Assembly (NCBI GenBank): GCA_963678315.1
Contig: OY782781.1
Location: 1,248,001 to 1,312,000, forward strand
Source: Candidatus Cloacimonadales bacterium
GTDB taxonomy: Bacteria > Cloacimonadota > Cloacimonadia > Cloacimonadales > JAFGVF01
DNA length: 64,000 bases
Reading direction: 5' to 3'
Under the pieces are notes generated by a model that was not told the origin of the DNA, searched no databases, and worked only from the letters and a program-made list of their open reading frames with translations. This document shows positions 1 through 20,465 of this stretch, one piece after another (positions within the stretch are counted from its first letter, which is position 1; every line of letters starts with the position of its first letter). The position numbers were made by a program, and so were the translations under genes.

Positions 1-223
1 TCTTAAGGTTTCTATATAATCTTTCACACACTTTGTCTAAACTAATGCTTTCATGTAAAGAAGTAGCTATCTGCCTTACTATTATTGAACCTGAAGAAAT
101 AATGCCTTTAGTTATGTCTTTCAATGCTTTATATTCAGGCAGACTTAATCCTTGTGCATACTTTTTTACTTTTTTGGAAAATTTCCCTTGCAATTTTACA
201 ACACTATTTTTTACTAATTTCAT
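1..223 (-). mobile_element. N-terminal part of a putative IS (DDE, IS4-like superfamily) transposase, running off the window start
   Basis: Not in the ORF track. My translation from the ATG at 223 is MKLVKNSVVKLQGKFSKKVKKYAQGLSLPEYKALKDITKGIISSGSIIVRQIATSLHESISLDKVCERLYRNLK, open to the edge. The GI.xSgS..v..IA.sL.E.i.L.K..eRL.RnL pattern resembles DDE transposase N-termini. A GAGCTCC...GGAGCTC inverted repeat lies just upstream. Confidence 0.65.
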
Positions 224-680
224 ATTTAGAGAGCTCCCTATTTTTTGTTTTGTAGTAAATTCAATTTATTTAAGGAGCTCTTCTTTTTCAATAAATATTT
301 TAATTTATTTTATTATTTATCAATTACTTATATCCCCTCGAAAAATGGCTTAATATTAGCCTTTTCTGGGAAGTTAAATTAAAATTTAATCATAAAGTTG
401 ATTTTTGAAATACATGCCGTAAATCTAATTTTTACCTGACAAACTATATCTCTAGAATACTTATTCACTCTTAGTTAGCTCTTTGGCTATATGGTTTTTT
501 GGGGGTATGCTTGTAATACTTCATCTGGGTTCAATAACGATAACCAAGTTCTTTGCTAGGTATTAAAATGTATTTAAGTTCAATTATAACAGTACTATAG
601 AAATGTAAAAATAATAAATAAGTTATTGACAAAAATGTATCTATTTTGAAAAAATAGCAATAAGAAAGGAGAACGAGATA

Positions 681-1214
681 ATGAAAACTAGAAATATTGT
701 ATTAATTGCAATGATAGCTATACTTTTATCTATGGTATCATTGTACGCTACAGGTCACAGTGGCCATTGTGGAAAATGTGAAGGTCATTCAGAAATTGAA
801 GAAGTTGAAGTAACTGGAAGAGTCACAAAAACCGATACTTGCTTAACCTTAACAGAGCAGGGAAAGGAAACAGTTTTAAAGCTTGTATTCTCTGAAGAAA
901 TGGAAGCAAAGGCAGATTCAATAGACACTCAAAGTATTTATACATTTAAGGGTAAATTATCAAATAGTGGAAAAACTATTTTTGTTAGTCAGTTTAGTGA
1001 GTTAACTCAAACTAAAACAGCAGGCTATCAGGTAATCCCTGAAAAATGTATAGGTTGTCGATTATGTGTGAGAAATTGTCCAGAAAATGCTATCAAAATG
1101 GTAGATGGGAAAGCAGTAATTGACCAAGAAAAATGTGTTGATTGTGGAATTTGTAAAGATGGTAACGGGAAGTTTAAGGGTTGCCCAGTAAAAGCAATTG
1201 AAAAAAGCAAATAA
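681..1214 (+). CDS. Exported 2[4Fe-4S] ferredoxin-like protein with N-terminal His/Cys motif and small beta domain
   Basis: Sec-type signal ending SLYA; HSGHCGKCEGH; CIGCRLCVRNCP and CVDCGIC...GCP cluster motifs; RBS AGGAG. Confidence 0.85.
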   Translation: MKTRNIVLIAMIAILLSMVSLYATGHSGHCGKCEGHSEIEEVEVTGRVTKTDTCLTLTEQGKETVLKLVFSEEMEAKADSIDTQSIYTFKGKLSNSGKTIFVSQFSELTQTKTAGYQVIPEKCIGCRLCVRNCPENAIKMVDGKAVIDQEKCVDCGICKDGNGKFKGCPVKAIEKSK

Positions 1215-1233
1215 GAATTGAAGTGGAGATGTG

Positions 1234-1770
1234 ATGAAAAAAATATTATTTGTTGTGACTATAGTCTTGTCTTTAGTTGTCACTCTTTTTGCAGTTTATC
1301 AGATTAATCCTTCTGATTGTAGAAACTGTGGAAGATGTGTTAGTGCATGTGATGAAGATGCAATTTATTTTGATACTAGTGTTGGAAAATACCAAATTGA
1401 TCCTAACCTATGTGAAGATTGTGGTGATTGTGTTGATAGATGTAGAGATGATGCTATTGAGCAAGTTCCAGTGTCTAATGATGATACAGATGTAGAAATT
1501 GTTACTTTAAGTGTAAATGTTTTTCCTAATCCAACAGCTACAAAAGCTATCTTTAAGGTATTCACTGAAGATAGAAATATGGAAGGAAAACTTTCAATAT
1601 ATAATATGAAGGGTCAAAAAATAAGATCATATAATGTAGATAGTAAGAATAATGTTACTAGTTGGGATTTAACCAATTCGAAAGGAACTAGAGTAGCACC
1701 TGGAAATTATCTCTATAAATTAGAAGCTGGAGATAAAACTATAACCAGAGCTATGACAGTCTTGGATTAA
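1234..1770 (+). CDS. Secreted 2[4Fe-4S] ferredoxin-like protein with C-terminal FlgD-Ig/T9SS type A sorting domain
   Basis: Signal peptide ending TLFA; CRNCGRCVSAC and CEDCGDCVDRC; tail FPNP...IYNMKGQKIR...WDLTNSKG..VAPGNYLYKL. ATG 1234 chosen (GGAG at 1225); alternative GTG 1231. Confidence 0.85.
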   Translation: MKKILFVVTIVLSLVVTLFAVYQINPSDCRNCGRCVSACDEDAIYFDTSVGKYQIDPNLCEDCGDCVDRCRDDAIEQVPVSNDDTDVEIVTLSVNVFPNPTATKAIFKVFTEDRNMEGKLSIYNMKGQKIRSYNVDSKNNVTSWDLTNSKGTRVAPGNYLYKLEAGDKTITRAMTVLD

Positions 1771-1771
1771 T

Positions 1772-2023
1772 ATGAATAAGAAACTGTTATTAATAATTAT
1801 TGTAGCAGTTGCATTTTGTGGGTTTCTCGTTGCTGTAGTAGTGACTGAGAAACCTTTTGTGCAAAAGAGCGATTGTGTTGGATGTGGAGATTGTGTAAAC
1901 GAGTGCCCTGTTGATGCTATTGAAATTGTGCATGGTAAAGCAGTTATTGACCAAGAGAAGTGTATTAACTGTCAGCTATGTGTAAAAAAATGTACTTATA
2001 ACGCTATAAAAGTAGGAAAATAA
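1772..2023 (+). CDS. Small 2[4Fe-4S] ferredoxin-like protein with N-terminal signal/membrane anchor
   Basis: Hydrophobic N-terminus; CVGCGDCVNECP and CINCQLCVKKC. Confidence 0.85.
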   Translation: MNKKLLLIIIVAVAFCGFLVAVVVTEKPFVQKSDCVGCGDCVNECPVDAIEIVHGKAVIDQEKCINCQLCVKKCTYNAIKVGK

Positions 2024-2268
2024 TGAAAAAGATTACTCTAATAGTACTGATTGGCTTGCTTGTTTTTGTGACTATATCTTGTAAGAAACCATCTGATAAA
2101 GAATACCATGTAGATAAATCTTCTTGTACTGCTTGCGGAGAATGTATTGATGCTTGCGATTACGATGCAATTGAATTTGATACAGATGGAAAGGCTGTGA
2201 TTGATCAATCAAAATGCAAAGCTTGTGGAGATTGCATTAAAGTATGTCCTGAAGGAGCAATCTATTAA
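2023..2268 (+). CDS. Lipoprotein 2[4Fe-4S] ferredoxin-like protein
   Basis: Lipobox-like VTISC after a hydrophobic stretch; CTACGECIDAC and CKACGDCIKVCP; TAATG coupling. Confidence 0.85.
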   Translation: MKKITLIVLIGLLVFVTISCKKPSDKEYHVDKSSCTACGECIDACDYDAIEFDTDGKAVIDQSKCKACGDCIKVCPEGAIY

Positions 2269-3479
2269 TGCGTAAAATATTCTTAACCTTGTTTTTACTA
2301 GCAGTCTCGCTGATATGGGCAGGCAACTATTGGAATCAGTCTCAAGTAACTTTAACCCAAGATGAAGATGCTGATTATTGGGGATTTAAGAATAATCATC
2401 TTGCTGAATATTATCTTAATAATCTCTATCTAGAAATAGGTCTTAATACTTTCCTTTCAGAAATCAGTTCTCCGGACTATATTGAAGAGAGAAGTTCTTA
2501 TGTTACTAATGAAATAAAATCTTTTACTATATATAATATTACTTCTAACTCAAGTCTTAAATTAGGCTTTAACAATAATTATTATGATTACAATAAAAGC
2601 ACTACTAATACTTTAGTTGAGGGGATAGGACTACCAAGCCAAACATTAGCTAAGAACTATTCATATCTTGTATATGAAGGGCAATTTAATAATTTGCAGA
2701 TTCTTAGTGGTGTAAGGTATAGAACAAATTATTATGATCATCAAATTGACCTAGGTGGTTTAATAAATACTGCTGAATATCATACTTATGATGAATTCTA
2801 TAAGGATATATATCTTGCCTATAACTTGAGTGAAGAAGTAAGGATTTATTCTGATTTCTATAATAAGACTTTCTATAGCTCAACAAAAGACTTCCTGGAT
2901 CCAAAACGTGAATATGATGTTACTGAATATGGTTTAGGTGTAAATTATACTTCAAAAGATTTCTTTAATGGAAAGCTGGTAGAAGATTTCTATTATGAAA
3001 AAAGATTAGGCGATAATCTACAAGAGTATGAAGAAGATTATTTTGTGAATAGTTTTAGATATGTTCTTGCTTTGCATGATAGATTAAATGCATTCTGTTC
3101 CTACATAAGCCACTTCTCCTATGATTCTGAAGATAAAGAATTTTATAGACTTGCTAATATGGTTAGAATGCAACTTCGCTATAACATATCTTATGATGAT
3201 GGCGATTCTTATATTTTAGCAGGAACTAGACTAAATCCTGAGAATCAATCACGAAGATACTTTGTTGAAGTTAAATATCCATTAATGGATAAGCTCTACT
3301 GTCGAGTAAATGAAACTTACTATTATGAAACATATAATTCTGTTTCAACAGCCCTTGAATACTACCTTACATCTGCAAGCCATATATATGTAGAAAATAA
3401 CTATACAGACTCTCTAGATGATTTTGGCTACTATTCTTATAAAAACCAATTCTTACTTGGTGCTAGGATGTATTTCTAA
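2268..3479 (+). CDS. Putative outer-membrane beta-barrel protein
   Basis: Signal peptide ending IWA; Tyr/Asn-rich alternating strands; C-terminal BAM-like signature LLGARMYF; TAATG-coupled on both sides. Confidence 0.7.
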   Translation: MRKIFLTLFLLAVSLIWAGNYWNQSQVTLTQDEDADYWGFKNNHLAEYYLNNLYLEIGLNTFLSEISSPDYIEERSSYVTNEIKSFTIYNITSNSSLKLGFNNNYYDYNKSTTNTLVEGIGLPSQTLAKNYSYLVYEGQFNNLQILSGVRYRTNYYDHQIDLGGLINTAEYHTYDEFYKDIYLAYNLSEEVRIYSDFYNKTFYSSTKDFLDPKREYDVTEYGLGVNYTSKDFFNGKLVEDFYYEKRLGDNLQEYEEDYFVNSFRYVLALHDRLNAFCSYISHFSYDSEDKEFYRLANMVRMQLRYNISYDDGDSYILAGTRLNPENQSRRYFVEVKYPLMDKLYCRVNETYYYETYNSVSTALEYYLTSASHIYVENNYTDSLDDFGYYSYKNQFLLGARMYF

Positions 3480-4465
3480 TGCTTAAAACACTTATTGAAG
3501 GATTTACTTTAGGTTTATCCACAGGCACACTTTGCCTTGTTTCCTGCACACCAATTTACCTACCTTATCTTGTATCGGAAGATAGATCCTTTGCAAAGAA
3601 TATTTGGAAGGTTATGGAAATATCTCTAGGACGTTTCTTTTCCTATATAGTCTTTGGTTTAATGGCTGGTTGGTTAGGAAGCAACATTGGAACAATTAAT
3701 CGGGATTTGTTTACTGGTATTGCTTACATCCTCTTATCAATATTCTTAGTAATGAGCGTTCTTAGGACCAAAAAGAAAGGAAAAGGATGCCATGTTCCTA
3801 AAATGCTAAAAGTTACTTCTTCTGCCTTTTTGCTAGGTGTATTTACAGGAATAAACTTCTGTCCTTCTTTCTTGATAGCTCTTTCAAAAGCAGTTGATTT
3901 AGCAGGTCCAATAAGTGGAGCTTTATTGTTTATGGGCTTCTTTTTGGGGACATCTATATTTTTAATACCTTTAGCCTTTTCGGGTTTCCTTGCTCAAATT
4001 AAGAAACTCAAGCTTGTAGCTCAAATTGCTTCTATTGCCATAGCTGTCTGGTTTATATATTCTGGTGCTACAAAAGTGTATGATTATATTAAAGAATCCA
4101 ACCAAGAATATTATATTGTTGAAGCAACATCAGCTGAATATTCTATGGTGTTGATTTCTAGTCAGGATACTGGGGCAAACTTCTTGACTTTGACTGATTC
4201 CCTTTTCTCCTTCAAGAAAGATCAGTTCACTCTAATCAATGATTCAATGATAGAAGCATCTGAATTAGAAGAATTCAATGATAATACTATTTTGCTTATT
4301 GAAAAGAAACTGATTACAGAAGCTAACCATGAAGCCTTGCAAAAGTATCATCATTTTATTATCACTAAAGATATACCAGCGGAAAATATCTTAGCCTTTC
4401 TTAGAAATACTAAAATGAAATTGAAACAAGATGCTCATATACATTTTTCTTTAGAAAGTAAATAA
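3479..4465 (+). CDS. DsbD_2/CcdA-like (TauE/SafE-annotated) multi-pass membrane protein with soluble C-terminal domain
   Basis: GLSTGTLCLVSCTP in TM1, GRFFSY motif, GINFCP in the second half, about 6 TM segments. Confidence 0.75.
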   Translation: MLKTLIEGFTLGLSTGTLCLVSCTPIYLPYLVSEDRSFAKNIWKVMEISLGRFFSYIVFGLMAGWLGSNIGTINRDLFTGIAYILLSIFLVMSVLRTKKKGKGCHVPKMLKVTSSAFLLGVFTGINFCPSFLIALSKAVDLAGPISGALLFMGFFLGTSIFLIPLAFSGFLAQIKKLKLVAQIASIAIAVWFIYSGATKVYDYIKESNQEYYIVEATSAEYSMVLISSQDTGANFLTLTDSLFSFKKDQFTLINDSMIEASELEEFNDNTILLIEKKLITEANHEALQKYHHFIITKDIPAENILAFLRNTKMKLKQDAHIHFSLESK

Positions 4466-4487: not shown

Positions 4488-4518
4488 AAGAGTCTTGATA
4501 AGTCAAGACTCTTTTCTT
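4488..4518 (+). terminator. Intrinsic terminator of the Fe-S operon
   Basis: AAGAGTCTTGA-TAAG-TCAAGACTCTT followed by TTCTT. Confidence 0.7.
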
Positions 4519-4705
4519 GTTTGCAAAATAAAAGGATAAAGCTTTTTACATTTAGAATCCTAATAAGCACAGTGACTTTTTAAGTTCTAAAACATTATTT
4601 AGGATAATCTTAGCTTTTGGAATAAAAATCCCATCGCATAAATATGATTTAGGTTGAATTTACAATCTATTAGGATGTTTAATTTTGAAAACATGTGAGG
4701 TGTTT

Positions 4706-7700
4706 ATGCAAAAAAAAGTAAGCTTATTGTTTTGGTTTATAAGCATGTTTATGGTACTTTTACCAACTTTTTCCTATGGGCAATTTACTCTTGAGAGTGA
4801 TACTGAAGATCAAACAATTATTGTATTTAATCTGCCTGATTATAATATAATACAAGCAAATCATGTTAATAAAGGTTACAAAGTAATTGAAACTAGTAAA
4901 CATAATTACAGATTTGATGAAGGTTTACCTAACTTACCATTTTACAATACTACAATCCAAATCCCAGATTTGGGAGATGCTACATTTGACTATTCGATAT
5001 TAGAATCAGAAACTATTGAAAATACAGCTATTTTACCTTATTTTGAAGAAGTACCGGTTCTAGCAAATTCTACAGTAAAACAAGAAGAAAATAACCAATG
5101 GTATCCGGAAGATGAGGTGTTAATAGGCGAGCCAGCAATAATGAGAAACAAGAGATTAATCAATATAATGATTAACTCTTTTCGATACAATAACAATAAA
5201 CAAGAACTTCAAGTTCTTAAAAAAGTTAAAATAATAATCAATTATAATCGCAGTAGAACAGGAGTTAATCAGCTAATTTTTAATAATGTGGGCTCTTCTA
5301 ATGAATTCGAGGATGTTTTTAGAGCTAACATTCTTAACTATGAAAATCATGATAATAGGTCTGAATTTCAAAACCCTTCTATCCTGTATATATATAATTC
5401 TGTTTTACATGAAGGTTTTCTATCTTCCTTGAATGAGCTTGTTGAATGGAGAAGAGAGTTGGGATGGAAGGTTAGAGTTTTTAATTGTATGAATTTAACT
5501 AAAGAAGAGATTAAAGCGTATATTCAAGAGTGTTATTATTCGGATATAAATCCCATTACACATGTTACTATATTTGGCGATAATGGTATTCCATCATATT
5601 TTGAAGATATTGAGAGGGAAGATCCAACCTATGTTAATAGTGATCATCCTTATACATTGCTTTCTGGGAATGATTATCTTTCAGATATCTTTCTAAGTAG
5701 GATGTATGTAGATGATGATTATAAGGCTGCTGTTTTTGTAAATAAAATTATTAGTTATGAGAAGCAGGATATAGTAACAAATACTGATTGGTTTAATAAG
5801 AATATATTAGTAAGTGCTATTAATCAGGGTGTAGATGGTACGGTTATTTCAAGTGTTTTTACAAACCAATACGTGAATGAGATAATGTTAAGCTATAATC
5901 CTGCTTATGAGAATTCTGTTTATGATTATAGTTTGTCTACAAGTAACGTTATGGATGATATCAATGATGGCTGTCTTTTTTTTAATTATAGAGGAGATGA
6001 AACTATTTTGAATTTACACAACTACCTGGGCAACCAACTGGCAAACTATAACAAGTTACCAATTTTAGTGTTGTATACAGATAGCAGTCTGACATATTCT
6101 AACCGCTTTGGCAATTTAATGACAGTAATTGGGACTCCTGATACTCAATTAGGATCACCAGCTGTTTTTGGAATGGATACAGATGATAGTCATACAGCCT
6201 ACAATAATATTTTATCAGCTTCTACAATGGAATATTTCTTTGTAAATGATGGATGGTATTGTTCTAGTGCATTAAACAACGCTAAGTTGAGATTATGGCA
6301 AACTTATAATATACATAATCCTCAAGTCGCTGATTTACAAATGAAAGCTGCTGCACTCAATGGTGATGCTGCTATGAAAGTTTGGAAAGGTGTTCCCAAA
6401 GATATGGATGTATCATGTGATGATATTATTTTAGTAGGAAGTGACCAGTTTGAAGTTAGTGTAATGGAAGGTAACCAAGCTTTAAAAGATGTATGGGCAA
6501 CAATAAAGATTGGTGATGAGACCTACTCAACTTATACAGATTCTCGAGGTATTGCTATGATAGAATTTGCTATGGAAAGTGGGGAGGATGTTCTCTTAAC
6601 TCTATCTAAAGAGGGTTATAGAACACAACAAATGCCTTTATCTATTGAGGAAATTGAAGAAAGTATTATCATTGAAAATACTTCCTTATACTCCAATAAT
6701 CAAGAGTGTGATTTTTTATTAGCTCAATCTAGCTATGACTTAGAGTTGGAACTAAAAAATACAGGAACAGTCTTACTCCAAGATGTAGAGGTTACAATTA
6801 CCTGTGATTCTGAGGATATTAATTTTGATGCTGGTCAATTAAACTTTGGTGACTTAGCTTGTGGCGAAACTGGTCTAGGGAATTTCTCTTTCTCGGTGTT
6901 CTCTATTAATAACGATAAAGCTATAAAGTTTGATATTCTAATTGAATCTGGAGACAGGTCGTGGAATAAATTTATCTATTTTGATACTCAGACTCCAATT
7001 ATTGAGATTGATCCACAATTTGTAACTAATAGCTATAATTTTTTTCATGGGATAGTTGATTTCAGGATAGTTAATAACGGTAATCAAGCTCTAAATAATG
7101 GATTAGCTACTTTAACTACTAGTAATGGAGCTTTTACCATTACAGATAGCTCTTTTGAATTTAATGCGTTAGACATTGATAGTACTTTGACTCTAAACTA
7201 CTCCATTTCTTCAATAGGAAATATTTATTTGGGTACAATTGTACCTTTTGAGTTAGAGATAGAAGGGGATGGATATCATACAGTTTTACAGACGAATGCA
7301 TCTTACGCTTATCCTAGCCAAACTCAACCTACTGGTCCTGATCCCTATGGATATGTTATATATGATTCTTATGATACAAATTATGAGGAATGCCCAAACT
7401 ATGAATGGATTGATAGTTCTGAAATTGATAATGGTACTTATTTTGAGCTTGATTTTGACTATTCTACTCCTGAAGAAAACACAGTTCAATGCATAGAAAT
7501 GCCTTTTACCTTTAGTTTTTATGGGGTAGAATATGATTCTATATCTGTGTGTGCAAATGGATGGTTATCTTTTGGATATACCGAGCAAGCAAGCTTCAGA
7601 AATTGGAGTGTTCCTGGTCCTTTAGGTCCATCTCCTATGCTTGCTGTCTTTTGGGATGACCTTGAAATGGAAGAGTCTTCAAGTTGCAATTATGTTTATG

Positions 7701-8869
7701 ATATTGATAATCATTGTGTTATTATAACATGGCAAGACGTTGAAATATACAATAATGTTGCTCTTATTACTTTTCAAGCTATATTATATGACCCTGATTA
7801 TTATGATACCTCAACTAATGATGGACCGATTAAATTACAGTATCAAGATATATGGATTTTTGAAGTTAATCAACATAGTGGGGGGAATTATGTAACGGTT
7901 GGAACAGAAGATCATACTAGCCAAGTTGGATTAGAATACACTTTTAATAATCAATATCCTGTTACAGCACATCAATTAGAGGATAATTTCGCCCTTTACA
8001 TAACTACAGAAACTGAACAAAAAGCTCCTATAGCCATAGCAGAAATAAGTGATATATATATTGATGAAGATTCTGAATTCTCTGGATTAAATACAATCAA
8101 TTTGTTTAGAGACCCTAATAATGATGACTTTGAGATTTTCCTTGCAAATACAGAACATTTTACTATGACTATTAATGAAGCAAATATTGCTACTATTAGC
8201 CCAACAGAAGACTGGTATGGTGTTGAAGAAGTCACTCTATGTGCTCAAGATGATTTTAATCCTGATTGCGGAGAAATATCTTTTACTATGAATGTAAATC
8301 CTATCAATGATAGGCCTGTTTTACTCAATTCTTACCCTGAAGAAAGTGACTTGATAAGTGAGGTTGATTTCTTTGGATTTGGAGTTGATGTATATGACCC
8401 AGATAATGATATTGACTATACATGGAAGATAAATGGCACGATTATTGAGGGCGAGACAACTGATACATTGTACTACTATTTTGAAGAATTGGGTATCTAT
8501 AATATTAAATGTTATGCTACAGATGGTATGGTTACTATAATGACTGATTGGAATATTACTGTTACGACTGATAATGAAGTAGAATATGCTTTAGTTAACT
8601 CTCTATCCCAGAATATTCCTAATCCATTCAATCCTTCTACTGCTATAAATTTCTCTATTAAGAATAGTAGTAAAGTATCATTAATCATTTACAACATAAA
8701 AGGTCAAAAGGTTAAAACTCTCGTTTCTGATAGATTAGAAAAGGGAAATCATACTGTTGTTTGGAAGGGTAATGATGATAATAATCAAAAGGTTTCATCA
8801 GGTATTTACTTCTATAGATTAATCACTGATGAATTCCAATCTACAAGAAAGGCTATTATGCTGAAATAG
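4706..8869 (+). CDS. Gingipain-like C25 family protein (propeptide, C25 domain, Ig-like domains, T9SS/FlgD sorting domain), probably catalytically degenerate
   Basis: GLPNLP propeptide; WRRELGW, SDHPYTLLSGNDYLSDIFLSR, FFNYRG, NGDAAMKVW; C-terminal QNIPNPFNP...IYNIKGQKV...SSGIYFY. ATG 4706 follows GAGG. Confidence 0.8.
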   Translation: MQKKVSLLFWFISMFMVLLPTFSYGQFTLESDTEDQTIIVFNLPDYNIIQANHVNKGYKVIETSKHNYRFDEGLPNLPFYNTTIQIPDLGDATFDYSILESETIENTAILPYFEEVPVLANSTVKQEENNQWYPEDEVLIGEPAIMRNKRLINIMINSFRYNNNKQELQVLKKVKIIINYNRSRTGVNQLIFNNVGSSNEFEDVFRANILNYENHDNRSEFQNPSILYIYNSVLHEGFLSSLNELVEWRRELGWKVRVFNCMNLTKEEIKAYIQECYYSDINPITHVTIFGDNGIPSYFEDIEREDPTYVNSDHPYTLLSGNDYLSDIFLSRMYVDDDYKAAVFVNKIISYEKQDIVTNTDWFNKNILVSAINQGVDGTVISSVFTNQYVNEIMLSYNPAYENSVYDYSLSTSNVMDDINDGCLFFNYRGDETILNLHNYLGNQLANYNKLPILVLYTDSSLTYSNRFGNLMTVIGTPDTQLGSPAVFGMDTDDSHTAYNNILSASTMEYFFVNDGWYCSSALNNAKLRLWQTYNIHNPQVADLQMKAAALNGDAAMKVWKGVPKDMDVSCDDIILVGSDQFEVSVMEGNQALKDVWATIKIGDETYSTYTDSRGIAMIEFAMESGEDVLLTLSKEGYRTQQMPLSIEEIEESIIIENTSLYSNNQECDFLLAQSSYDLELELKNTGTVLLQDVEVTITCDSEDINFDAGQLNFGDLACGETGLGNFSFSVFSINNDKAIKFDILIESGDRSWNKFIYFDTQTPIIEIDPQFVTNSYNFFHGIVDFRIVNNGNQALNNGLATLTTSNGAFTITDSSFEFNALDIDSTLTLNYSISSIGNIYLGTIVPFELEIEGDGYHTVLQTNASYAYPSQTQPTGPDPYGYVIYDSYDTNYEECPNYEWIDSSEIDNGTYFELDFDYSTPEENTVQCIEMPFTFSFYGVEYDSISVCANGWLSFGYTEQASFRNWSVPGPLGPSPMLAVFWDDLEMEESSSCNYVYDIDNHCVIITWQDVEIYNNVALITFQAILYDPDYYDTSTNDGPIKLQYQDIWIFEVNQHSGGNYVTVGTEDHTSQVGLEYTFNNQYPVTAHQLEDNFALYITTETEQKAPIAIAEISDIYIDEDSEFSGLNTINLFRDPNNDDFEIFLANTEHFTMTINEANIATISPTEDWYGVEEVTLCAQDDFNPDCGEISFTMNVNPINDRPVLLNSYPEESDLISEVDFFGFGVDVYDPDNDIDYTWKINGTIIEGETTDTLYYYFEELGIYNIKCYATDGMVTIMTDWNITVTTDNEVEYALVNSLSQNIPNPFNPSTAINFSIKNSSKVSLIIYNIKGQKVKTLVSDRLEKGNHTVVWKGNDDNNQKVSSGIYFYRLITDEFQSTRKAIMLK

Positions 8870-8896
8870 TTTACTGCTTATATATAACTTAAAGAT

Positions 8897-8923
8897 GTAG
8901 AGACGCTAGCTAAGCGTCTCTAT
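8897..8923. repeat. GTAG-type REP-like palindrome
   Basis: GTAGAGACGC-TAGCTAA-GCGTCTCTAT; related degenerate copies at about 49978-50003 and 50042-50066. Confidence 0.6.
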
Positions 8924-9151
8924 CAATTTATATATCTCCAAAGAGGATACATTTTTTGGGCTTAGTAGCAAGGATATTGCTAATACTAACTAACTTTTCC
9001 TCATCATACTTTAAAAAAATAATAACTATTATTAATTATTATTAGCATTTTATTCTATCTTGTAAAAAAAAGTTTCCTTACATAAGTATCTAATAATTAG
9101 TAATAAAGAGAATCTACAGCTAATTAATATTAATATTTTGTAAAAAAAGTA

Positions 9152-9180
9152 TTGACATGGAAACAAGCATTTTATAACTT
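9152..9180 (+). promoter_or_regulatory. Sigma70-like promoter of the tRNA cluster
   Basis: TTGACA-17 bp-TAACTT, about 20 bp upstream of tRNA-Ser, with an AT-rich upstream region. Confidence 0.6.
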
Positions 9181-9201
9181 GCTTTTACATGATTTGAACA
9201 C

Positions 9202-9287
9202 GGAGAATTAGTCCTAATTGGTAAGGCAGCGGTCTTGAAAACCGCCGGGCTTCGCCCTTGGGGGTTCGAGTCCCTCATTCTCCGCCA
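9202..9287 (+). tRNA. tRNA-Ser(TGA)
   Basis: Acceptor GGAGAAT/ATTCTCC-GCCA; anticodon arm GCGGT-CT TGA AA-ACCGC; long variable arm; GTTCGAG T-loop. Confidence 0.95.
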
Positions 9288-9305
9288 TTTCTTTTATTAA
9301 TAAGT

Positions 9306-9396
9306 GGAGAGGTGGCCGAGCGGCTTAAGGCGTGCGCCTGCTAAGCGTATGTAGGCTAATCCCCTACCGAGGGTTCAAATCCCTCCTTCTCCGCCA
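9306..9396 (+). tRNA. tRNA-Ser(GCT)
   Basis: GGAGAGG...CTTCTCC-GCCA; anticodon loop CT GCT AA; long variable arm; GTTCAAAT. Confidence 0.95.
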
Positions 9397-9429
9397 TTGC
9401 GAATATTAAAAAATTAATATAAACAGTGT

Positions 9430-9504
9430 TGGGACGTCGACAAGTGGTAAGTCACATGGTTTTGGTCCATGTATCCGCGGGTTCGAATCCTGCCGTCCCA
9501 ACCA
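9430..9504 (+). tRNA. tRNA-Gln(TTG)
   Basis: TGGGACG/CGTCCCA-ACCA; anticodon arm CATGG-TT TTG GT-CCATG; GTTCGAAT. Confidence 0.95.
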
Positions 9505-9520
9505 TTTTAATTATACATGA

Positions 9521-9545
9521 ACCGTTTTAGACGGTCTTTTTTTTT
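9521..9545 (+). terminator. Terminator after the tRNA cluster
   Basis: ACCGT-TTTAG-ACGGT plus a long T tract. Confidence 0.7.
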
Positions 9546-9682
9546 GCCCTGAAATATCCAATTCTACTTGTAGACAAGACCTTTTACACAAAAAAAGAAC
9601 CAGAACAAAATTAATCTGTTCTGGTCCTAAAATGCTTAACCCAGATAAATCCTAATAGATTATATGGGCTAAAATTGTTTAT

Positions 9683-12600
9683 CTAATCAACATGAGCTTT
9701 AATTCGGTAGAACTTTCTAACTGATGAGTTAGTATCTTCCCAAGAAGTACTGCTTGTTGTATAGGTGTTTACGCTATCGAAATCAATAGTATCAGAAGTT
9801 TCAATTTGGTATGAACTAGCACCAATAACACTATCCCAGTTAAGTATAATATTACCTTGTGCATTTATTGAAATACTAATGTTTTCTGGAGAATCAATAG
9901 ATGTAATAACATCACCAAAGATAATAACTCTATCATCATCGCATATCATAATAGAAGAATCTTTAACAATAACAGAAGCAATATTCCAAGTTATATCATT
10001 ATCTGCATCATCATAAATCCATTGTATATTACCATCTGTATCAACTTTCATTAGTTCCGGAATACCACCAATAAGGTAGTTGTTATCAGAAGCTAAGGCA
10101 AGGGCTTTACCTTCACCATAAAAGCTGATAGGGTAGACTTTATCCCAAATCTTGTTACCACTAGAGTTTAGTTTAATCAAGACAGTTCTATTAGGTGTAG
10201 TTTGATCGTTATTATCGTGAGCATTACCTGTGATAACAAAGTTTCCATCAGCATCTTGCATAGCTGCTTTTCCGTATGAAGAAAAGCCTTGATTTGAAAC
10301 ACCAAAACCTTCTTCATATTCCCATTGCACAGAACCAGCTGAGTTAGTTTTGATAACCCAAACACGAGAATTACCAATAGGACTAGTTTCAGTTCCTGCT
10401 TTGTAGCCAGTTAGGAGATAGCCACCATCATTAGTTTGAATAACGCTGTTACATTGTTCTTGAGCATTATCCTCCCCATAGGTAATTTGAAATATTGGAT
10501 TAGTTTGATTCATTGCAGCCTTGGTAAGTAGGAAATCCCAATCCCTGAAACCAGTTCCACCTGTGATAACTGCATTGCCAGAATTATCAATAATCATATC
10601 CGTTACAAGCTCGTTACTAACTAGGTTACCTTCTTCATATTTATATGATTTTGACCATAAGGTATTTCCATTTAAATCAACTTGACTAAGGCCAGTCTTA
10701 TCACCATTGATGTATGATGTATTTTCATCTCTAGCAATCAAGAAATTACCATTTGATAATTCTATAGCCTTCTTAAAATAACTTGTCATAGTCGAATAAG
10801 TGTTACTTGAAAGAACTTGTCCTTGATTATTTATTGTCACTAAAGCATGATTGTTGTTGTTAAGTGTTCCTGCAAGGGCATATCCATTAGACGTTGCTGT
10901 TGCCTTATATATATTAAGTCCATTTATACTTTCATCATAAGAAATACTTGGAACATTCTCTGGGAACTCAGATACAAATGACCATACATCACCCTCTGAA
11001 ATATCTTCTGTATAGTTATTAGATAGTGTTACTCTCCAGTAATAAATTACTCCATAATCTAAGTTATCTATATAAGATAGATTATCTGTAATTACTCCAG
11101 AATATACTTCTGAAGCACCAGTCATCTCAGGATTGCTAGCGATTTCTACTAGACAGGTATTAAATCCAGTTGGATTAGTCCAGCTAAATGAAGAATTAAG
11201 TGCAATATCTCTAGAAGCTACACTCGGAGAAGGATTAAATGCTTTTAATCTATCTAAGCTTACATCAAACTGAATATCTTCAAAAAGTCCTGCATAAACC
11301 CAATCTTTAAACTCATAACCTGCTTTAGAAAACTCGAAATAGTAACCTTCAGAAGGTAAGGTCATAGACCAGTTACCATTCACGTCTGTATAAGTAGATT
11401 CTGTTTCTCTTGATTTCCAGCCACCTTCCATATCCATTAAGCTAACTAAAACACCTTCAATAGGCTCATTAGTGTATGAATCAGTAACTAGTCCGGTTAC
11501 AGTATATGCTTCTGTAACGCTAAAATTATAAGTTCTAGAAGAAATATCAAAACCACTTGCTGTTCTTCCTACCACTTTCCAATAATAACTTCCATTTGAA
11601 TCCAAATCTCCGAGTTGGGCATTATCAATACTGTTTATTTGATTACCACTATAGATGATATCACTTGCTGAGAAAGTAGAGTTCCCTTGTTGTAAATAGA
11701 AATCTATAGATGTAAAACTTAGCATTGATTCCCAAGAGATATCAGTATCTACGGTTGTTGCCGAATATTCTGCAGGATTTGGGTTAGTTACTACAAAATT
11801 AGGAGAGAATAGCAGAGCTAAACCATCAACTAAATAATAATCTGATTGCTGATAAGAAAGACCAGTTGAACCGTCATAGTTCTCTATTGCCACTGGGCAT
11901 TCTTCAAAAGGAAATGAGTCTGGGACGTCACTATATTGCATTTTAATATCGCCACTTTCAAAGAATATTAATTGAGCAGTCAACATCTCATTTTGATCAT
12001 ACATAAGTGGTATAGAACTATAAGTTAACACATAAGCATTTTCACCATTAATGATTGTATTCTCTTCGTAAAAAGCACCTTCTTGAACATTAGCAAACTC
12101 TGCAAAGAAAAGTGAAACAAGATTATTAACATCATTTTCTTCAGGAATAATGTTTCCTCCAAAAGAATTATCGCTTCTGTTAAAAGAAACCACCCCATAG
12201 TTATTCAGATATATATTACTAAATGTATCATAATAATATTTGAAGTTAAAACCTAAGCTTCGTGAATTACCAAGTTCAAACTGGCTTCTAGAAATTTCAC
12301 TTGCATTATCGGTTGGAATCCAATCATAAATTGGTCCATCTTGGTCCATTGAAGAGATTACATAGTAGTAATTATCATCTGGTCCTACTACTGTTGGAAC
12401 GATAGAAACAGTAAAGTCAAGATCTGCAGAATGACCTGTATTCGAAACAGCTTCAAGTGTAATTGTCTCTTCATCAATACTAGCATTTTCTGGAATTGAA
12501 GCTACTAGTCTCATCATTTTAGCATCTTCTGCTCCTAGTATGAAGTTGTCCATCTCTACTAATTCTAAGCTCTCTTCATCATGATCACTGAGATATTCAT

Positions 12601-17863: not shown

Positions 17864-18421
17864 AATATTCTCCCATTAGTTATTATTTAACTAAATAGTA
17901 TTTTGTTGTCAAGTAATTATGAAATACTATTATATCTTTATTATTGTGGATGTTTTTTACATAAAGTAAAGTAAGAAAAAGATCATTTACATATAACATT
18001 ACGAGTTAACTAAAAAAAATTATCAAAATATTTTTGATTTAAATGAAACTGCTCTCGTAAACCTTGCATTAAAGAGATGGAATAATCTAGATGGGATTCC
18101 CACAGAATATATTATAGACTCTAAATTAGCTCAAAAGAAATACAAAAAATCAAAAGATCAGTTAAAGTCTTTCTTAAAAAGAGAATATTAAATTGATTAA
18201 TAACTCGTTAGTATCTAATTTTAAATAAATCAAGAGTTATAAGCATATACATTATTGTTCCACTTTTCTTAATATATTTTGTGTATTAATATAATAATTT
18301 TTATTGAGTTCCTAGATAACAAGAAAGAATATACATAGTCTGATTTAATAAAAACCTTGACAACTGTATTTTATTTAGTAATTTTAGCATAAAAATGTAA
18401 ATATTGAATATAGAGGTGAGT

Positions 18422-19771
18422 ATGATTATTGATTTAACAATGGAGAATGTTTTTTCAATAGGTAAAGAACAGAAATTCAGTTTTGAAGCATATGAACCAG
18501 CTGATAATGGTTATGAAGAACATTATATCTGTAAAATACCCAAAAGAGGAGAATATAAAAAAGAGGAAGATAGAAATTACAGATTGTTAAAAGTAGCACT
18601 ATTATTAGGAGCTAATGCTTCAGGAAAATCTAACATACTAAAATCATTTGATTTATTAAATGAAATCATGCTCAAGACAAGAAATAGAAATGAGAAATTC
18701 AATTATGAACCATTTCTTTTAAATCCTAAGATGGAAGAAGTAGCTTCTAAATTATGTTTGAACTTTTTGCTAGAAGATGATGATGGACAATACTCACGGT
18801 ATAAATATCTTATTGAGTTCACGAAAAATGAGATCTTACGAGAGCGCTTAGATAAATATCTATCAAGTCAACCTTCACTAGTATTTGAACGAGTAAGTGA
18901 TGAGGATAATGCGCGAGGTTTTAGGGTTGAGTATGGCAAAAAATTTAAGCCAAATCAGATTGAGACAATGACTATTGAAGCTAACACTCTTCCCAATAAT
19001 TCAATAATATCGATTTTTAATAAAAGCAATCCCTTATTTAATGAGTTAAAAAAAGTATATGGTTGGGGTAAAAAATCTTTTACAATGATAATAGCACCTA
19101 ATACTAATACAACCAGATATACAAATAGATTATTGGCAAGTGAAAGAAAACTAAGAGATTTAGGGAAATCTGTTTTAATTAATGCTGATTTTAACATCTC
19201 AAATATTGATATTGATGTACAAGAGATAGAATTAAATGATAAAGAAAAAAAATTACTAAAAACACTATCTGAAAAAGCTGAAGAAAATATATCTATTGAT
19301 GATTTAAAGAGAAGGTTTTATGACTTGAAACTGACTCATAAAGTACAGATTGATGGTGAGGAAGTTGAAAGAGAATTTGAGGAAGACTTAGAGTCTTTGG
19401 GTACAATGAAATTTTATAGTTTACTGGGTCCATATTTTTCTGCATTTAAGATAAATAGATTGATGATGATTGATGAAATTGAAACGTCACTTCATTGGGA
19501 ACTTCAAAAGAGTTTAATAACTTTATTTCTGATTAATTCAAAAAAGTCTCAACTTATATTTGCAACTCACAATCCTCTTTATTTAATGTGGGATATTATT
19601 AGAGCTGATTCTATCTATTTCACAGAAAAAAAAGATAATGGTGAGACTGATTTATACTCCTTAGTAGATTTTAATAATATAAATAGAGAAAATATATTCA
19701 AGAAGTACTTAATTGGCAATTATGGAGCTGTTCCTAATATAAATGAATATGACTTAGATTTAAAATTGTAG
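18422..19771 (+). CDS. RloA-like/AAA_21 ABC-type ATPase
   Basis: Walker A GANASGKS, ESLGT signature, Walker B MMIDEIETSLH, QLIFATH, C-terminal YLIGNYGAVP; ATG 18422 follows GAGG. Confidence 0.85.
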   Translation: MIIDLTMENVFSIGKEQKFSFEAYEPADNGYEEHYICKIPKRGEYKKEEDRNYRLLKVALLLGANASGKSNILKSFDLLNEIMLKTRNRNEKFNYEPFLLNPKMEEVASKLCLNFLLEDDDGQYSRYKYLIEFTKNEILRERLDKYLSSQPSLVFERVSDEDNARGFRVEYGKKFKPNQIETMTIEANTLPNNSIISIFNKSNPLFNELKKVYGWGKKSFTMIIAPNTNTTRYTNRLLASERKLRDLGKSVLINADFNISNIDIDVQEIELNDKEKKLLKTLSEKAEENISIDDLKRRFYDLKLTHKVQIDGEEVEREFEEDLESLGTMKFYSLLGPYFSAFKINRLMMIDEIETSLHWELQKSLITLFLINSKKSQLIFATHNPLYLMWDIIRADSIYFTEKKDNGETDLYSLVDFNNINRENIFKKYLIGNYGAVPNINEYDLDLKL

Positions 19772-19778
19772 GTATTAT

Positions 19779-20465
19779 ATGGGCAGAAATAGGATAAAAA
19801 GAGCTGAACGTAAGGGAAAATCCAAAAAAAATAAGTCCTTTCAAAATAGTGAATTTGATGGAAAAGGAGCAAGGAAGGATAGGCATCAAATAATCATATT
19901 TTGTGAAGGTCCAACAGAGCAAGAGTATTTTAAACAATTGAAAGAATATGAAGATCTTTGTAATATATACATTGAACCAGATATAAAAGCTGGATCTGAT
20001 TGGGAAAAGATATTTAATAGACTTAATAACTCATATATAGATGATGTATCATGTAGTTTCTATTGTGTCCTAGATTTAGACCAGCAAATTAATCAAGATA
20101 AAATGCCTGAATACTTAACTAAAAAAGGTAAACTACCGATACCCATAGAAAATGTAATTGAAACTTATATGTGCTTTGAAACATGGATTTTAATGCATTA
20201 TAAAGATAATCCTAAATCGGGAACATACTGTAGAACATCAGTAGATGAATTAAAAAAAATTGAAGGGTTTGGCAACTATATAAAAGGTGATAAATTTAAC
20301 AGTATATACTCTATTTTAAAAGATAATCAAAAAAAAGCATGTACCAATGCTGAACGTTTAGAACTTAAAAGAAATAAAGACATAAAAAAAGGGATTTATA
20401 AAGAGAAAGAGTGTCGTTTAGTTTATTCAAGTATGTGGAGATTAATTAAGGAGTTGTTAAAATAA
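19779..20465 (+). CDS. RloB family (AbiLii-like, TOPRIM-like) protein
   Basis: IFCEGPTEQEYF, CVLDLD and CFETWILMHY motifs; directly downstream of the ATPase. Confidence 0.85.
   Translation: MGRNRIKRAERKGKSKKNKSFQNSEFDGKGARKDRHQIIIFCEGPTEQEYFKQLKEYEDLCNIYIEPDIKAGSDWEKIFNRLNNSYIDDVSCSFYCVLDLDQQINQDKMPEYLTKKGKLPIPIENVIETYMCFETWILMHYKDNPKSGTYCRTSVDELKKIEGFGNYIKGDKFNSIYSILKDNQKKACTNAERLELKRNKDIKKGIYKEKECRLVYSSMWRLIKELLK

Follow-up and report, generated by a model that had tools for sequence, protein, structure and literature searches.

Can electrons be carried across a Gram-negative envelope by iron-sulfur (Fe-S) proteins, without haem? To our knowledge, all well-characterised electron routes across this envelope depend on multihaem cytochromes, and periplasmic Fe-S proteins, as far as they are known, leave the cytoplasm already folded, through the twin-arginine translocation (Tat) system. 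The question is raised by six genes at positions 681-4465 of a 64,000-nucleotide (nt) stretch of DNA (the window, that is, positions 1,248,001-1,312,000 of the forward strand of contig OY782781.1) from Candidatus Cloacimonadales bacterium (assembly GCA_963678315.1), whose genome of 2.99 Mb lies on one contig with a completeness of 97.9%. The genes encode, in this order, four small ferredoxin-type proteins (F1 to F4), a predicted outer-membrane beta-barrel (BB) and a membrane protein of the DsbD_2 family (DS). An earlier note, written from the DNA letters, had proposed here an Fe-S analogue of a trans-envelope electron conduit. Its components hold up in our analysis, namely exported domains, a barrel, a DsbD/CcdA-type protein and a gene set that is conserved together, and three of the four findings that the note had named as refuting were looked for and did not turn up; electron transfer through the outer membrane is the part that we continue to word conditionally. 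We suggest that the operon would function as a haem-free Fe-S electron relay from the inner membrane to the cell surface, with DS keeping the exported cysteines (Cys) reduced, and we give this reading a probability a little below one half (roughly 0.45).

Four ferredoxin-type proteins with export signals

The six genes, all on the forward strand, form a single, tightly packed operon. The junctions F3/F4 (2023), F4/BB (2268) and BB/DS (3479) are TAATG overlaps, the F2/F3 junction reads TAATATG, AAGGAG sits 5' of the F1 start, and at 4488-4513 on the same strand an 11-bp stem forms an intrinsic-terminator-like hairpin, with a T-run after it. All open reading frames (ORFs), overlaps and the hairpin listed in the earlier note were thus found again; F2 had been placed correctly, with its start at the ATG at 1234, which is the next one after the GTG at 1231 that we use here. 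A sigma-70-like promoter match (TTGACA, 18 nt, TG-AAAAAT; 626-655, forward strand) lies 25 nt 5' of F1 as a match to the consensus only, and the number of promoter matches in the region equals the shuffle expectation. Of four RNA runs, no read was placed on the window. The operon is far beyond chance, because its gene order recurs in other Cloacimonadota genomes.

F1, F2, F3 and F4 all match the Fer4, Fer4_7 and Fer4_10 dicluster models above Pfam cut-offs (Fer4 E 6e-11 for F1). Two Cys motifs had been noticed in each protein from the start: F2, F3 and F4 have two of the CxxCxxCxxxC form apiece, and F1 has one of this form together with a CxxCxxCx9C variant. All eight ligand Cys are retained in every aligned homologue of the four proteins (14 sequences in the F3 alignment). 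CxxCH is absent from all six operon genes, again as had been stated before. By these features, F1-F4 are predicted to contain clostridial-type ferredoxin domains that would each hold two [4Fe-4S] clusters.

The four proteins differ in what surrounds this domain, and each opens with a few basic residues ahead of a hydrophobic segment, as is typical of Sec export. F1 (177 amino acids, aa; 681-1214) consists of a signal peptide, a His/Cys-rich stretch, a beta-rich domain of ~90 aa and a C-terminal ferredoxin domain of the 2x[4Fe-4S] type (residues 116-177). The His/Cys-rich stretch (residues 24-36, GHSGHCGKCEGHS) directly follows the signal peptide; a shorter form, HCGKH, occurs in the sister genus only and not in more distant F1 homologues, and the stretch may be a lineage-specific metal site. 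A search of the ESM Atlas with the N-terminal domain of F1 gave no usable match. F2 (179 aa; 1231-1770) has a signal peptide, a dicluster ferredoxin domain (residues 23-80) and a type IX secretion system (T9SS) type A sorting domain (residues 97-179), which scores 42.7 bits against TIGR04183 (cut-off 23) and E 1.3e-7 against PF18962. The same tail was recovered by a genome-wide scan for T9SS sorting domains, which gave 127 matches, 126 of them over the cut-off, and the genome encodes PorU (573.6 bits, cut-off 420). With a sorting domain above cut-off, a hydrophobic N-terminus and T9SS machinery in the genome, F2 has the properties of a T9SS type A cargo, and the signal plus surface tail ascribed to it in the earlier note are both present. 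F4 (81 aa; 2023-2268) carries a lipoprotein signal followed by a dicluster ferredoxin domain that ends in AIY. Its previously noted lipobox is well supported, as Cys20 is invariant in 14/14 aligned homologues and is preceded by I/V/F-A/G/S, and by alignment F4 classifies as a bacterial lipoprotein.

F3 (83 aa; 1772-2023) consists of an N-terminal hydrophobic segment, either signal peptide or signal anchor, and a dicluster ferredoxin domain. The membrane anchor that had been assigned to it could not be upheld: the hydrophobic stretch is not distinguishable from a signal peptide, and several homologues end it in an A-x-A-like or lipobox-like manner, although in this genome no clear cleavage site follows it.

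The T9SS tail of F2, the invariant lipobox of F4, the fusions to fibronectin-III (fn3) repeats found in relatives and the Sec-type N-termini, four independent features, together indicate that the domains of F1-F4 most probably lie outside the cytoplasm. Had the N-termini left them inside, the proposal of a conduit would have fallen. In that case, the hydrophobic segments would be anchors, the ferredoxin domains would be cytoplasmic as in RnfB, and the operon would encode an ordinary membrane-associated redox complex. The RnfB of this genome does begin with a hydrophobic helix, and F3 with its missing cleavage site would suit such an arrangement. We regard it as very improbable, however, since besides the F2 tail and the F4 lipobox there are paralogues in the same slot that carry fn3 repeats and lipoboxes, an outer-membrane barrel with a signal peptide is encoded in the same operon, and positive charges precede every hydrophobic stretch.

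Export by Sec raises the question of how clusters would be acquired. TatC was not found in this genome, whereas 11/14 control genomes gave a match, and only 2 of the 101 sampled Cloacimonadota genomes (all at least 90% complete) have it. No RR motif occurs among the aligned N-termini of the exported ferredoxins. Because TatC was not found, F1-F4 would be Sec-exported Fe-S proteins with no maturation route known to us; indeed, we know of no pathway for Fe-S cluster assembly outside the cytoplasm. Spontaneous or assisted loading in an anoxic periplasm rich in Fe(II) and sulfide is conceivable. The abstracts that we retrieved describe such cofactors as inserted in the cytoplasm before Tat export.

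The domains may thus hold no Fe-S cluster in vivo. They would then fold around Zn or disulfides and have a structural, adhesive or other envelope role, the motif being a relic. Besides the fact that no Tat system was found and no assembly route is known, the fn3 repeats and T9SS tails fit such a role, as these are typical of adhesins and surface enzymes. We still consider it improbable, given that the eight ligand Cys and the surrounding ferredoxin signature are strictly conserved across families of the phylum and that the genes are linked to NapH-like redox proteins; moreover, a dedicated CcdA-like exporter of reductant makes little sense for disulfide-bonded domains. A UbiA-family prenyltransferase gave no match in this genome, while 14/14 control genomes matched, and only one of its ORFs contains two or more CxxCH motifs; no multihaem cytochrome was seen.

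The barrel BB and the membrane protein DS

BB (403 aa; 2268-3479) was analysed through a family alignment of 20 members and an AlphaFold2 model (mean predicted local distance difference test, pLDDT, 84.7; predicted template modelling score, pTM, 0.74). In the model, the signal helix is followed directly by 20 beta-strands, which begin at residue 20 and enclose no plug, and the mature protein has 384 residues. The sequence ends in ...MYF, and F403 is invariant in 20/20 sequences. With a signal peptide, a closed antiparallel barrel and a C-terminal aromatic residue, BB is predicted to be an outer-membrane beta-barrel, in agreement with the earlier note, which had described a barrel ending in YF. 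The top structural matches (Foldseek, VIA-align) are barrels of TonB-dependent transporters, namely BtuB (Z 17.5, root-mean-square deviation (rmsd) 4.3, 328 residues aligned), Cir (Z 17.2), chain D of the SusC-like BT1762-1763 (Z 16.6) and FusA (Z 14.8), and Z against solved outer-membrane barrels is in the range of 15-17.5. Porins of 18-19 strands rank after the TonB-type barrels. MtrB (6r2q_B) is among the many lower, generic barrel matches (Foldseek E 1.6e-6, rank 45, TMq 0.48).

TonB-dependent transporters are 22-strand barrels that enclose a plug of ~150 residues. BB has neither plug domain nor TonB box, and neither Plug nor TonB_dep_Rec matched it in Pfam, which sets it apart from this class. 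Since a plug of ~150 residues fits the lumens of TonB transporters, a ferredoxin of 60 residues should fit BB. No family in Pfam or NCBIfam matches BB. Its own family is small, with 13 clusters in a search of 5.8 billion proteins, none informatively named, and 77 representative clusters among 1.84 billion in a profile search; sequence searches link it to no family outside its own, and a single-sequence pattern scan of genome contigs with BB found no relative.

The earlier note had named a ferredoxin inside the barrel lumen as supportive of its proposal. Complex prediction for BB and F4 gave an ipSAE of 0.41 (runs 0.41, 0.47 and 0.37) versus 0.00 for the best control, the runs sharing at least 78% of contacts with a partner pLDDT of at least 69. 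The mark applied is reached by 116/157 solved complexes and 2/215 mismatched pairs, and scores of at most 0.60 include only 18/157 solved complexes plus both passing mismatched pairs. Docking of F4 to BB is thus weakly suggested, with no interface reported. The net charges of the ferredoxin domains and BB were uninformative on charge complementarity.

DS (328 aa; 3479-4465) matches DsbD_2 (PF13386) over residues 9-191 (E 9.6e-20), and its AlphaFold2 model (pLDDT 82.1) shows six long helices and a C-terminal alpha/beta domain (residues ~211-325) that is free of Cys. Four Cys do not vary among 37 sequences. Two of them, C19 and C23, belong to transmembrane helix (TM) 1, C104 to the basic loop preceding TM4, and C128 to an FCP motif of TM4. 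A six-helix core with conserved Cys in TM1 and TM4 is what defines the DsbD/CcdA superfamily, to which the paired membrane Cys had already pointed. A profile comparison with a canonical DsbD from a related genome pairs C19 with the active-site Cys in TM1 of that protein (hhalign E 0.0026, probability 11.6). Averaged over the 37 sequences, loops 1-2, 3-4 and 5-6 carry charges of +1.6, +4.9 and +1.4, with values near zero or below elsewhere. By the positive-inside rule, we infer that both termini and the C-terminal domain face the periplasm; the known topology of CcdA and DsbD likewise has both termini outside.

A profile search of PDB sequences with DS returned chance-level matches only, and Foldseek found nothing in PDB at E <=0.001 (template modelling score ~0.18). 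For the C-terminal domain, the structural matches are generic alpha/beta subdomains (LacI/CcpA type, Z 7.0-7.2), and the ESM Atlas yielded no usable match. DS homologues at six related loci (L081, L082, L085, L104, L105 and L107) measure 436-499 aa, 100-170 residues above the norm of 320-335 aa. RnfA/RnfE and NqrD/NqrE hold an intramembrane Fe-S centre on Cys of their membrane helices, and Cys in TM1 and TM4 are shared with DS. The top VIA-align matches of the DS membrane domain are 8ahx_A (Z 8.8, rmsd 5.2, 144 residues aligned) and 7xk3_E (Z 8.7), of the RnfA/NqrE type, in a Z range that is uninformative for helical bundles. When the DS alignment was compared with the RnfA and RnfE of its own genome, however, hhalign gave a probability of 0.1, which does not place DS in the Rnf/Nqr group, and a centre of that type in DS was demoted to a lead.

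From its sequence, DS would resemble a thiol-reductant or maturation factor, or a carrier, more than an electron entry point. We read it as a CcdA-like helper because its chemistry would be thiol-based, because the genome already has a general DsbD (a separate canonical protein encoded elsewhere), and because one relative (locus L022) runs the module with a NapH-like gene inside the cluster and without DS.

A different use of DS and of the ferredoxin-type domains would be the trafficking of Fe-S, iron or a thiophilic metal, for uptake or for export and detoxification. The domains would then serve as Cys-rich carriers, and the metal would pass through BB and through DS as a Cys-lined permease of the LysE/DsbD superfamily. 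PF13386 includes UreH-like metal permeases, and automatic annotation calls DS a 'sulfite exporter TauE/SafE'. The four invariant Cys are spread from the cytoplasmic loop (C104) via TM1 (C19, C23) to TM4 (C128), and F1 has its His/Cys-rich stretch straight after the signal peptide. Some neighbours in relatives agree with this use: a Fur-family regulator and FeoB lie 3' of the barrel gene in L022 (6210-8931), and in the sister genus (L013) the cluster is flanked by an HMA-domain protein and a heavy-metal P-type ATPase on one side (7874-10326) and by an ArsP-type permease on the other (632-1702). Moreover, with Tat not found, the apo-proteins could in any case encounter iron and sulfide only once they have left the cytoplasm. 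We nonetheless think metal trafficking rather unlikely. The metal-related neighbours are not conserved between genomes, and the His/Cys-rich stretch is limited to this genus and its sister genus. Full dicluster motifs with Cys-Pro and Ala-Ile positions, such as those found here, are typical of stable electron-transfer ferredoxins and not of cluster carriers. Furthermore, the co-clustered NapH-like and NapG-like families are annotated as 4Fe-4S electron-transfer proteins, and L022 has them without DS.

Conservation of the module in Cloacimonadota

BB matches were obtained in 16/41 related genomes, including 10/11 of the same family, and DS matches in 59/151 genomes of the phylum at E <=1e-10 (31/53 genera). 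Among 15 related loci compared, those of six genomes from the same family retain the complete order F1-F2-F3-F4-BB-DS, with variants in the rest, and F1 homologues are present in 12. Using the DS alignment as query, a motif-based scan of GTDB species genomes gave 85 DS relatives, and the best 80 were analysed. Cloacimonadota is the name on 74 of these 80 loci; the other six are two from an 'uncultured bacterium' and one each from Delongbacteria, Armatimonadota (a 7-kb contig), Fibrobacterota and Chitinispirillaceae. At 76/80 loci there is a DS ORF of 250 aa or more; 66 of these loci extend at least 2.2 kb upstream and could be evaluated. The slot beside DS is filled by an ORF of 300-520 aa in 52/66 loci. 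These ORFs match the BB hidden Markov model in 39/52 cases, end in F, W or Y in 44/52 and have a hydrophobic N-terminus in 50/52; the remaining 13, aligned jointly, match the BB alignment (hhalign probability 99.4, E 5e-22, 379 columns). Two or more small ferredoxin ORFs occur at 56 of the 66 loci, one at a single locus, and none at nine. The ferredoxin-barrel-DS module is therefore conserved across Cloacimonadota as a set, as the earlier proposal of a conduit requires.

Relatives also encode additional redox proteins next to the module. Among 57 loci with at least 5.5 kb of upstream sequence, a NapH-like Fer4_5 membrane protein is found in 20, a ferredoxin ORF of at least 320 aa in 33, a T9SS-tailed ferredoxin in 12, and one or other of the latter two in 43. 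Pfam scans identified proteins of ~260 aa in these clusters as NapH-like Fer4_5 membrane proteins with C-terminal dicluster motifs, and proteins of 168-275 aa as multi-cluster ferredoxins, including four-cluster, NapG-like ones. The slot of F2 is occupied in relatives by proteins of 343-1417 aa, mostly lipoproteins, in which Fer4 dicluster domains are combined with several fn3 repeats; the longest have one ferredoxin domain near the N-terminus and another at the C-terminus. By their domain content, the NapH-like proteins, the four-cluster NapG-like proteins and the ferredoxin-fn3-ferredoxin lipoproteins would favour a redox role.

In the genome studied here, the sole Fer4_5 (NapH-like) protein is encoded outside the window, at genome position 1843117-1843896, and shares 35-42% identity with the cluster-embedded NapH-like proteins, near full length in most loci matched. 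The next gene encodes a protein of 192 aa that begins with an export-type N-terminus and in which a linker rich in Ser, Thr and Glu connects two dicluster domains. Because this NapH/NapG-like pair, which lies inside the cluster in the 20 loci just mentioned, is here at a distant locus and not within the operon, the module is split over two loci in this genome. The pair (genome 1843117-1844478; L035:4118-5479) sits between a beta-eliminating lyase gene and a patatin-like gene. In one relative, an ORF of ~830 aa lies 5' of the module (L054:673-3165) and contains Fer4_20, Pyr_redox_2 and a C-terminal Fer4; by these domains, a role as cytoplasmic electron donor linked to NAD(P)H is possible. ORFs of similar size stand 5' of the module in L062, L069, L071, L073 and L080, and the one of L054 is the only one that was scanned.

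These partners would serve equally well in a redox module restricted to the periplasm. Low-potential electrons from the NapH/NapG-like pair and the ferredoxins, and thiol reductant from DS, would go to a periplasmic or surface reaction such as the reduction of polysulfide, sulfur, disulfides or a metal, and BB would be the channel by which the substrate enters. DS is of the CcdA/DsbD type, and 3' of the cluster in one genus lie genes for a canonical three-domain DsbD, a thioredoxin-like protein and an AhpC/TSA-type redoxin (L018:7405-10936). BB matches solute and TonB-type channels in general, and its docking with a ferredoxin is weakly supported by the model. On balance this arrangement seems unlikely, although less so than metal trafficking: the T9SS tail of F2 and the long, fn3-spaced lipoproteins place ferredoxin domains farther out than the periplasm, the clusters examined contain no gene for a catalytic subunit (molybdopterin, sulfur reductase or similar), and a plug-less barrel of 20 strands would be an unusually wide pore for small solutes.

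The flanking genes in the window, namely those for a C25 peptidase, surface proteins, an AAA_21/RloB pair and an ammonium transporter, are unrelated to the module and not conserved beside it. A partial ORF without Pfam match runs off the window start (2-223, reverse strand), and the 450 bp that separate it from the operon are AT-rich (GC ~0.29). Directly 3' of the operon, positions 4685-8869 (forward strand) encode a 1394-aa protein with the propeptide and catalytic domains of a C25 (gingipain-type) peptidase, Ig-like repeats and a T9SS sorting tail; this gene is not kept beside the module in other genomes. At 18404-20465 (forward strand), an AAA_21 ATPase gene is followed by a RloB-like gene, a pairing typical of abortive-infection or OLD-type defence systems.

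A possible Fe-S relay and its relation to known systems

We propose that Sec exports the four 2x[4Fe-4S]-type ferredoxin domains, which would be placed at successive depths of the envelope. F3 would stay at or near the inner membrane, F1 would be soluble in the periplasm, F4 would be anchored by its lipid at the outer membrane, and F2 would be fixed on the cell surface by type IX secretion. Electrons would enter through the NapH-like membrane polyferredoxin and the tandem NapG-like ferredoxin encoded elsewhere in this genome, and would presumably flow outward along the carriers in this order to a physiological partner. The plug-less BB would give a ferredoxin domain, most likely that of F4, passage through the outer membrane. 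DS would be a CcdA-like exporter of reducing power, or possibly of a cofactor, and not the electron input; keeping the eight Cys of each exported apo-ferredoxin reduced would allow the uptake of clusters outside the cytoplasm. We consider an electron-transfer role the best supported because the ligand Cys are strictly conserved, because the module is linked to NapH/NapG-like proteins, because a flavoprotein gene lies 5' of the module in some relatives, and because neither cytochromes nor a quinone prenyltransferase were found.

Several observations weigh against such a relay. No protein carries a wire-like chain of cofactors, so that diffusion or swinging domains would be needed, and several domains lie between the two ferredoxin domains of the fn3-spaced lipoproteins in relatives, a distance that electrons could not tunnel within a single protein. 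With TatC not found, the occupancy of the exported ferredoxins by clusters is an assumption. The DS superfamily comprises thiol-disulfide proteins and transporters, not one-electron carriers, and the automatic annotation of DS names an exporter. The docking score of BB and F4 is weak and comes without an interface, and BB could equally be a solute channel. Neither a terminal enzyme nor an acceptor is encoded in the clusters examined. The flanking genes vary (the C25 peptidase here; a Cu-type ATPase, DsbD/thioredoxins, a MacB-type ABC transporter or Fur-FeoB elsewhere), and some neighbours are metal-related. Finally, DS is patchy within the phylum, with about two fifths of the genomes (59/151) having it, and the module is not universal. 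A bolder version of the relay, in which the ferredoxins leave unfolded by Sec and acquire their clusters outside the cytoplasm with the four-Cys DS as a dedicated maturation factor, equivalent for ferredoxins to CcdA, and in which an all-Fe-S path then leads through BB to ferredoxins tethered at the surface by T9SS or fn3 repeats for cytochrome-independent direct interspecies or mineral electron transfer by these syntrophic fermenters, is possible but in our view doubtful. It would suit a phylum in which TatC, a UbiA-type quinone prenyltransferase and cytochromes are rare or were not found.

The closest analogues in layout are the porin-cytochrome conduits (MtrCAB of Shewanella; PCC/Pio/Mto), in which redox proteins of the periplasm and of the surface are likewise encoded together with an outer-membrane barrel, and the barrel likewise has no plug and is wide enough to hold a protein. 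The parts of the module show no recognised homology to theirs, and MtrB is among the many generic structural matches of BB. The module has no haem, its 2x[4Fe-4S]-type ferredoxins taking the place of multihaem cytochromes, and cannot be classed as such a conduit. BB has 20 strands as compared with 26 in those conduits, and no sequence relatives outside its own small family; in addition, the surface component is attached by T9SS, and no continuous chain of cofactors is evident. DmsEFAB of Shewanella, an extracellular dimethyl sulfoxide reductase, does place a Fer4-type subunit on the outer face of the outer membrane, beside a barrel. Its DmsB leaves with a Tat-exported molybdoenzyme and type II secretion, and receives electrons via the decahaem DmsE, whereas the module described here has no catalytic subunit, haem or Tat.

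The inner-membrane side recalls the NapGH-type pairs (also MauMN and the NosR/NirI relatives), as a Fer4_5 membrane protein with two C-terminal dicluster motifs stands beside an export-type multi-cluster ferredoxin, both in related clusters and at the second locus of this genome. In known pairs, NapG leaves by Tat and NapH oxidises quinol, but in this case no TatC, UbiA-family match or RR motif was found, so that the twin-arginine and quinol features of such pairs were not recovered. No nitrate, nitrous-oxide or other reductase is attached, and the pair instead goes with a barrel, ferredoxins of the lipoprotein type and a DsbD_2 protein. DS, in turn, resembles the CcdA/DsbD exporters of cytochrome c maturation in its six membrane helices, its Cys in TM1 and TM4 and the predicted outside location of both termini, and its gene is linked to exported proteins whose Cys must be reduced for a cofactor. 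It differs in being DsbD_2 (PF13386) and not DsbD_TM (PF02683), in having two extra invariant Cys (C23 and C104) and the Cys-free alpha/beta C-terminal domain, and in that its presumed clients carry ferredoxin motifs and not CxxCH. Among TonB-dependent transporters (SusCD, BtuBG and the ferredoxin importer FusA), which gave the top structural matches of BB, a barrel gene also adjoins a small lipoprotein gene in pairs of the Fibrobacterota-Chlorobiota-Bacteroidota (FCB) group. BB differs from these barrels in its strand number and in the absence of a plug, a TonB box and a TonB_dep_Rec match, and its lipoprotein partner is a ferredoxin.

A literature search of openly available full texts found no exported ferredoxins with a barrel, no T9SS-sorted ferredoxins and no Fe-S conduits in Cloacimonadota, in line with the earlier note, whose author knew of no description of this architecture. 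In the parts of the text retrieved, possible direct interspecies electron transfer in Cloacimonadota is ascribed to conductive pili (PMC7382037), and surface Fe-S proteins are only proposed, for a Gram-positive organism (PMC4137172). Within this literature, we found no precedent for complete dicluster ferredoxins with Sec-type export, including one that is a T9SS cargo.

Cloacimonadota are abundant in anaerobic digesters and anoxic sediments and are thought to live by syntrophy. The module would break both of the rules with which we began, that of multihaem cytochromes as envelope-crossing electron carriers and that of Tat export for periplasmic Fe-S proteins. As an electron conduit, it would explain, in a way that can be tested, how fermenters without cytochromes get rid of reducing equivalents, and would extend extracellular electron transfer to a second cofactor chemistry. 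Should the clusters be acquired only once Sec has exported the proteins, the module would represent a branch of Fe-S biogenesis not known before. Even under the rival explanations, the module defines a conserved, lineage-specific envelope system made of parts to which no function had been assigned.

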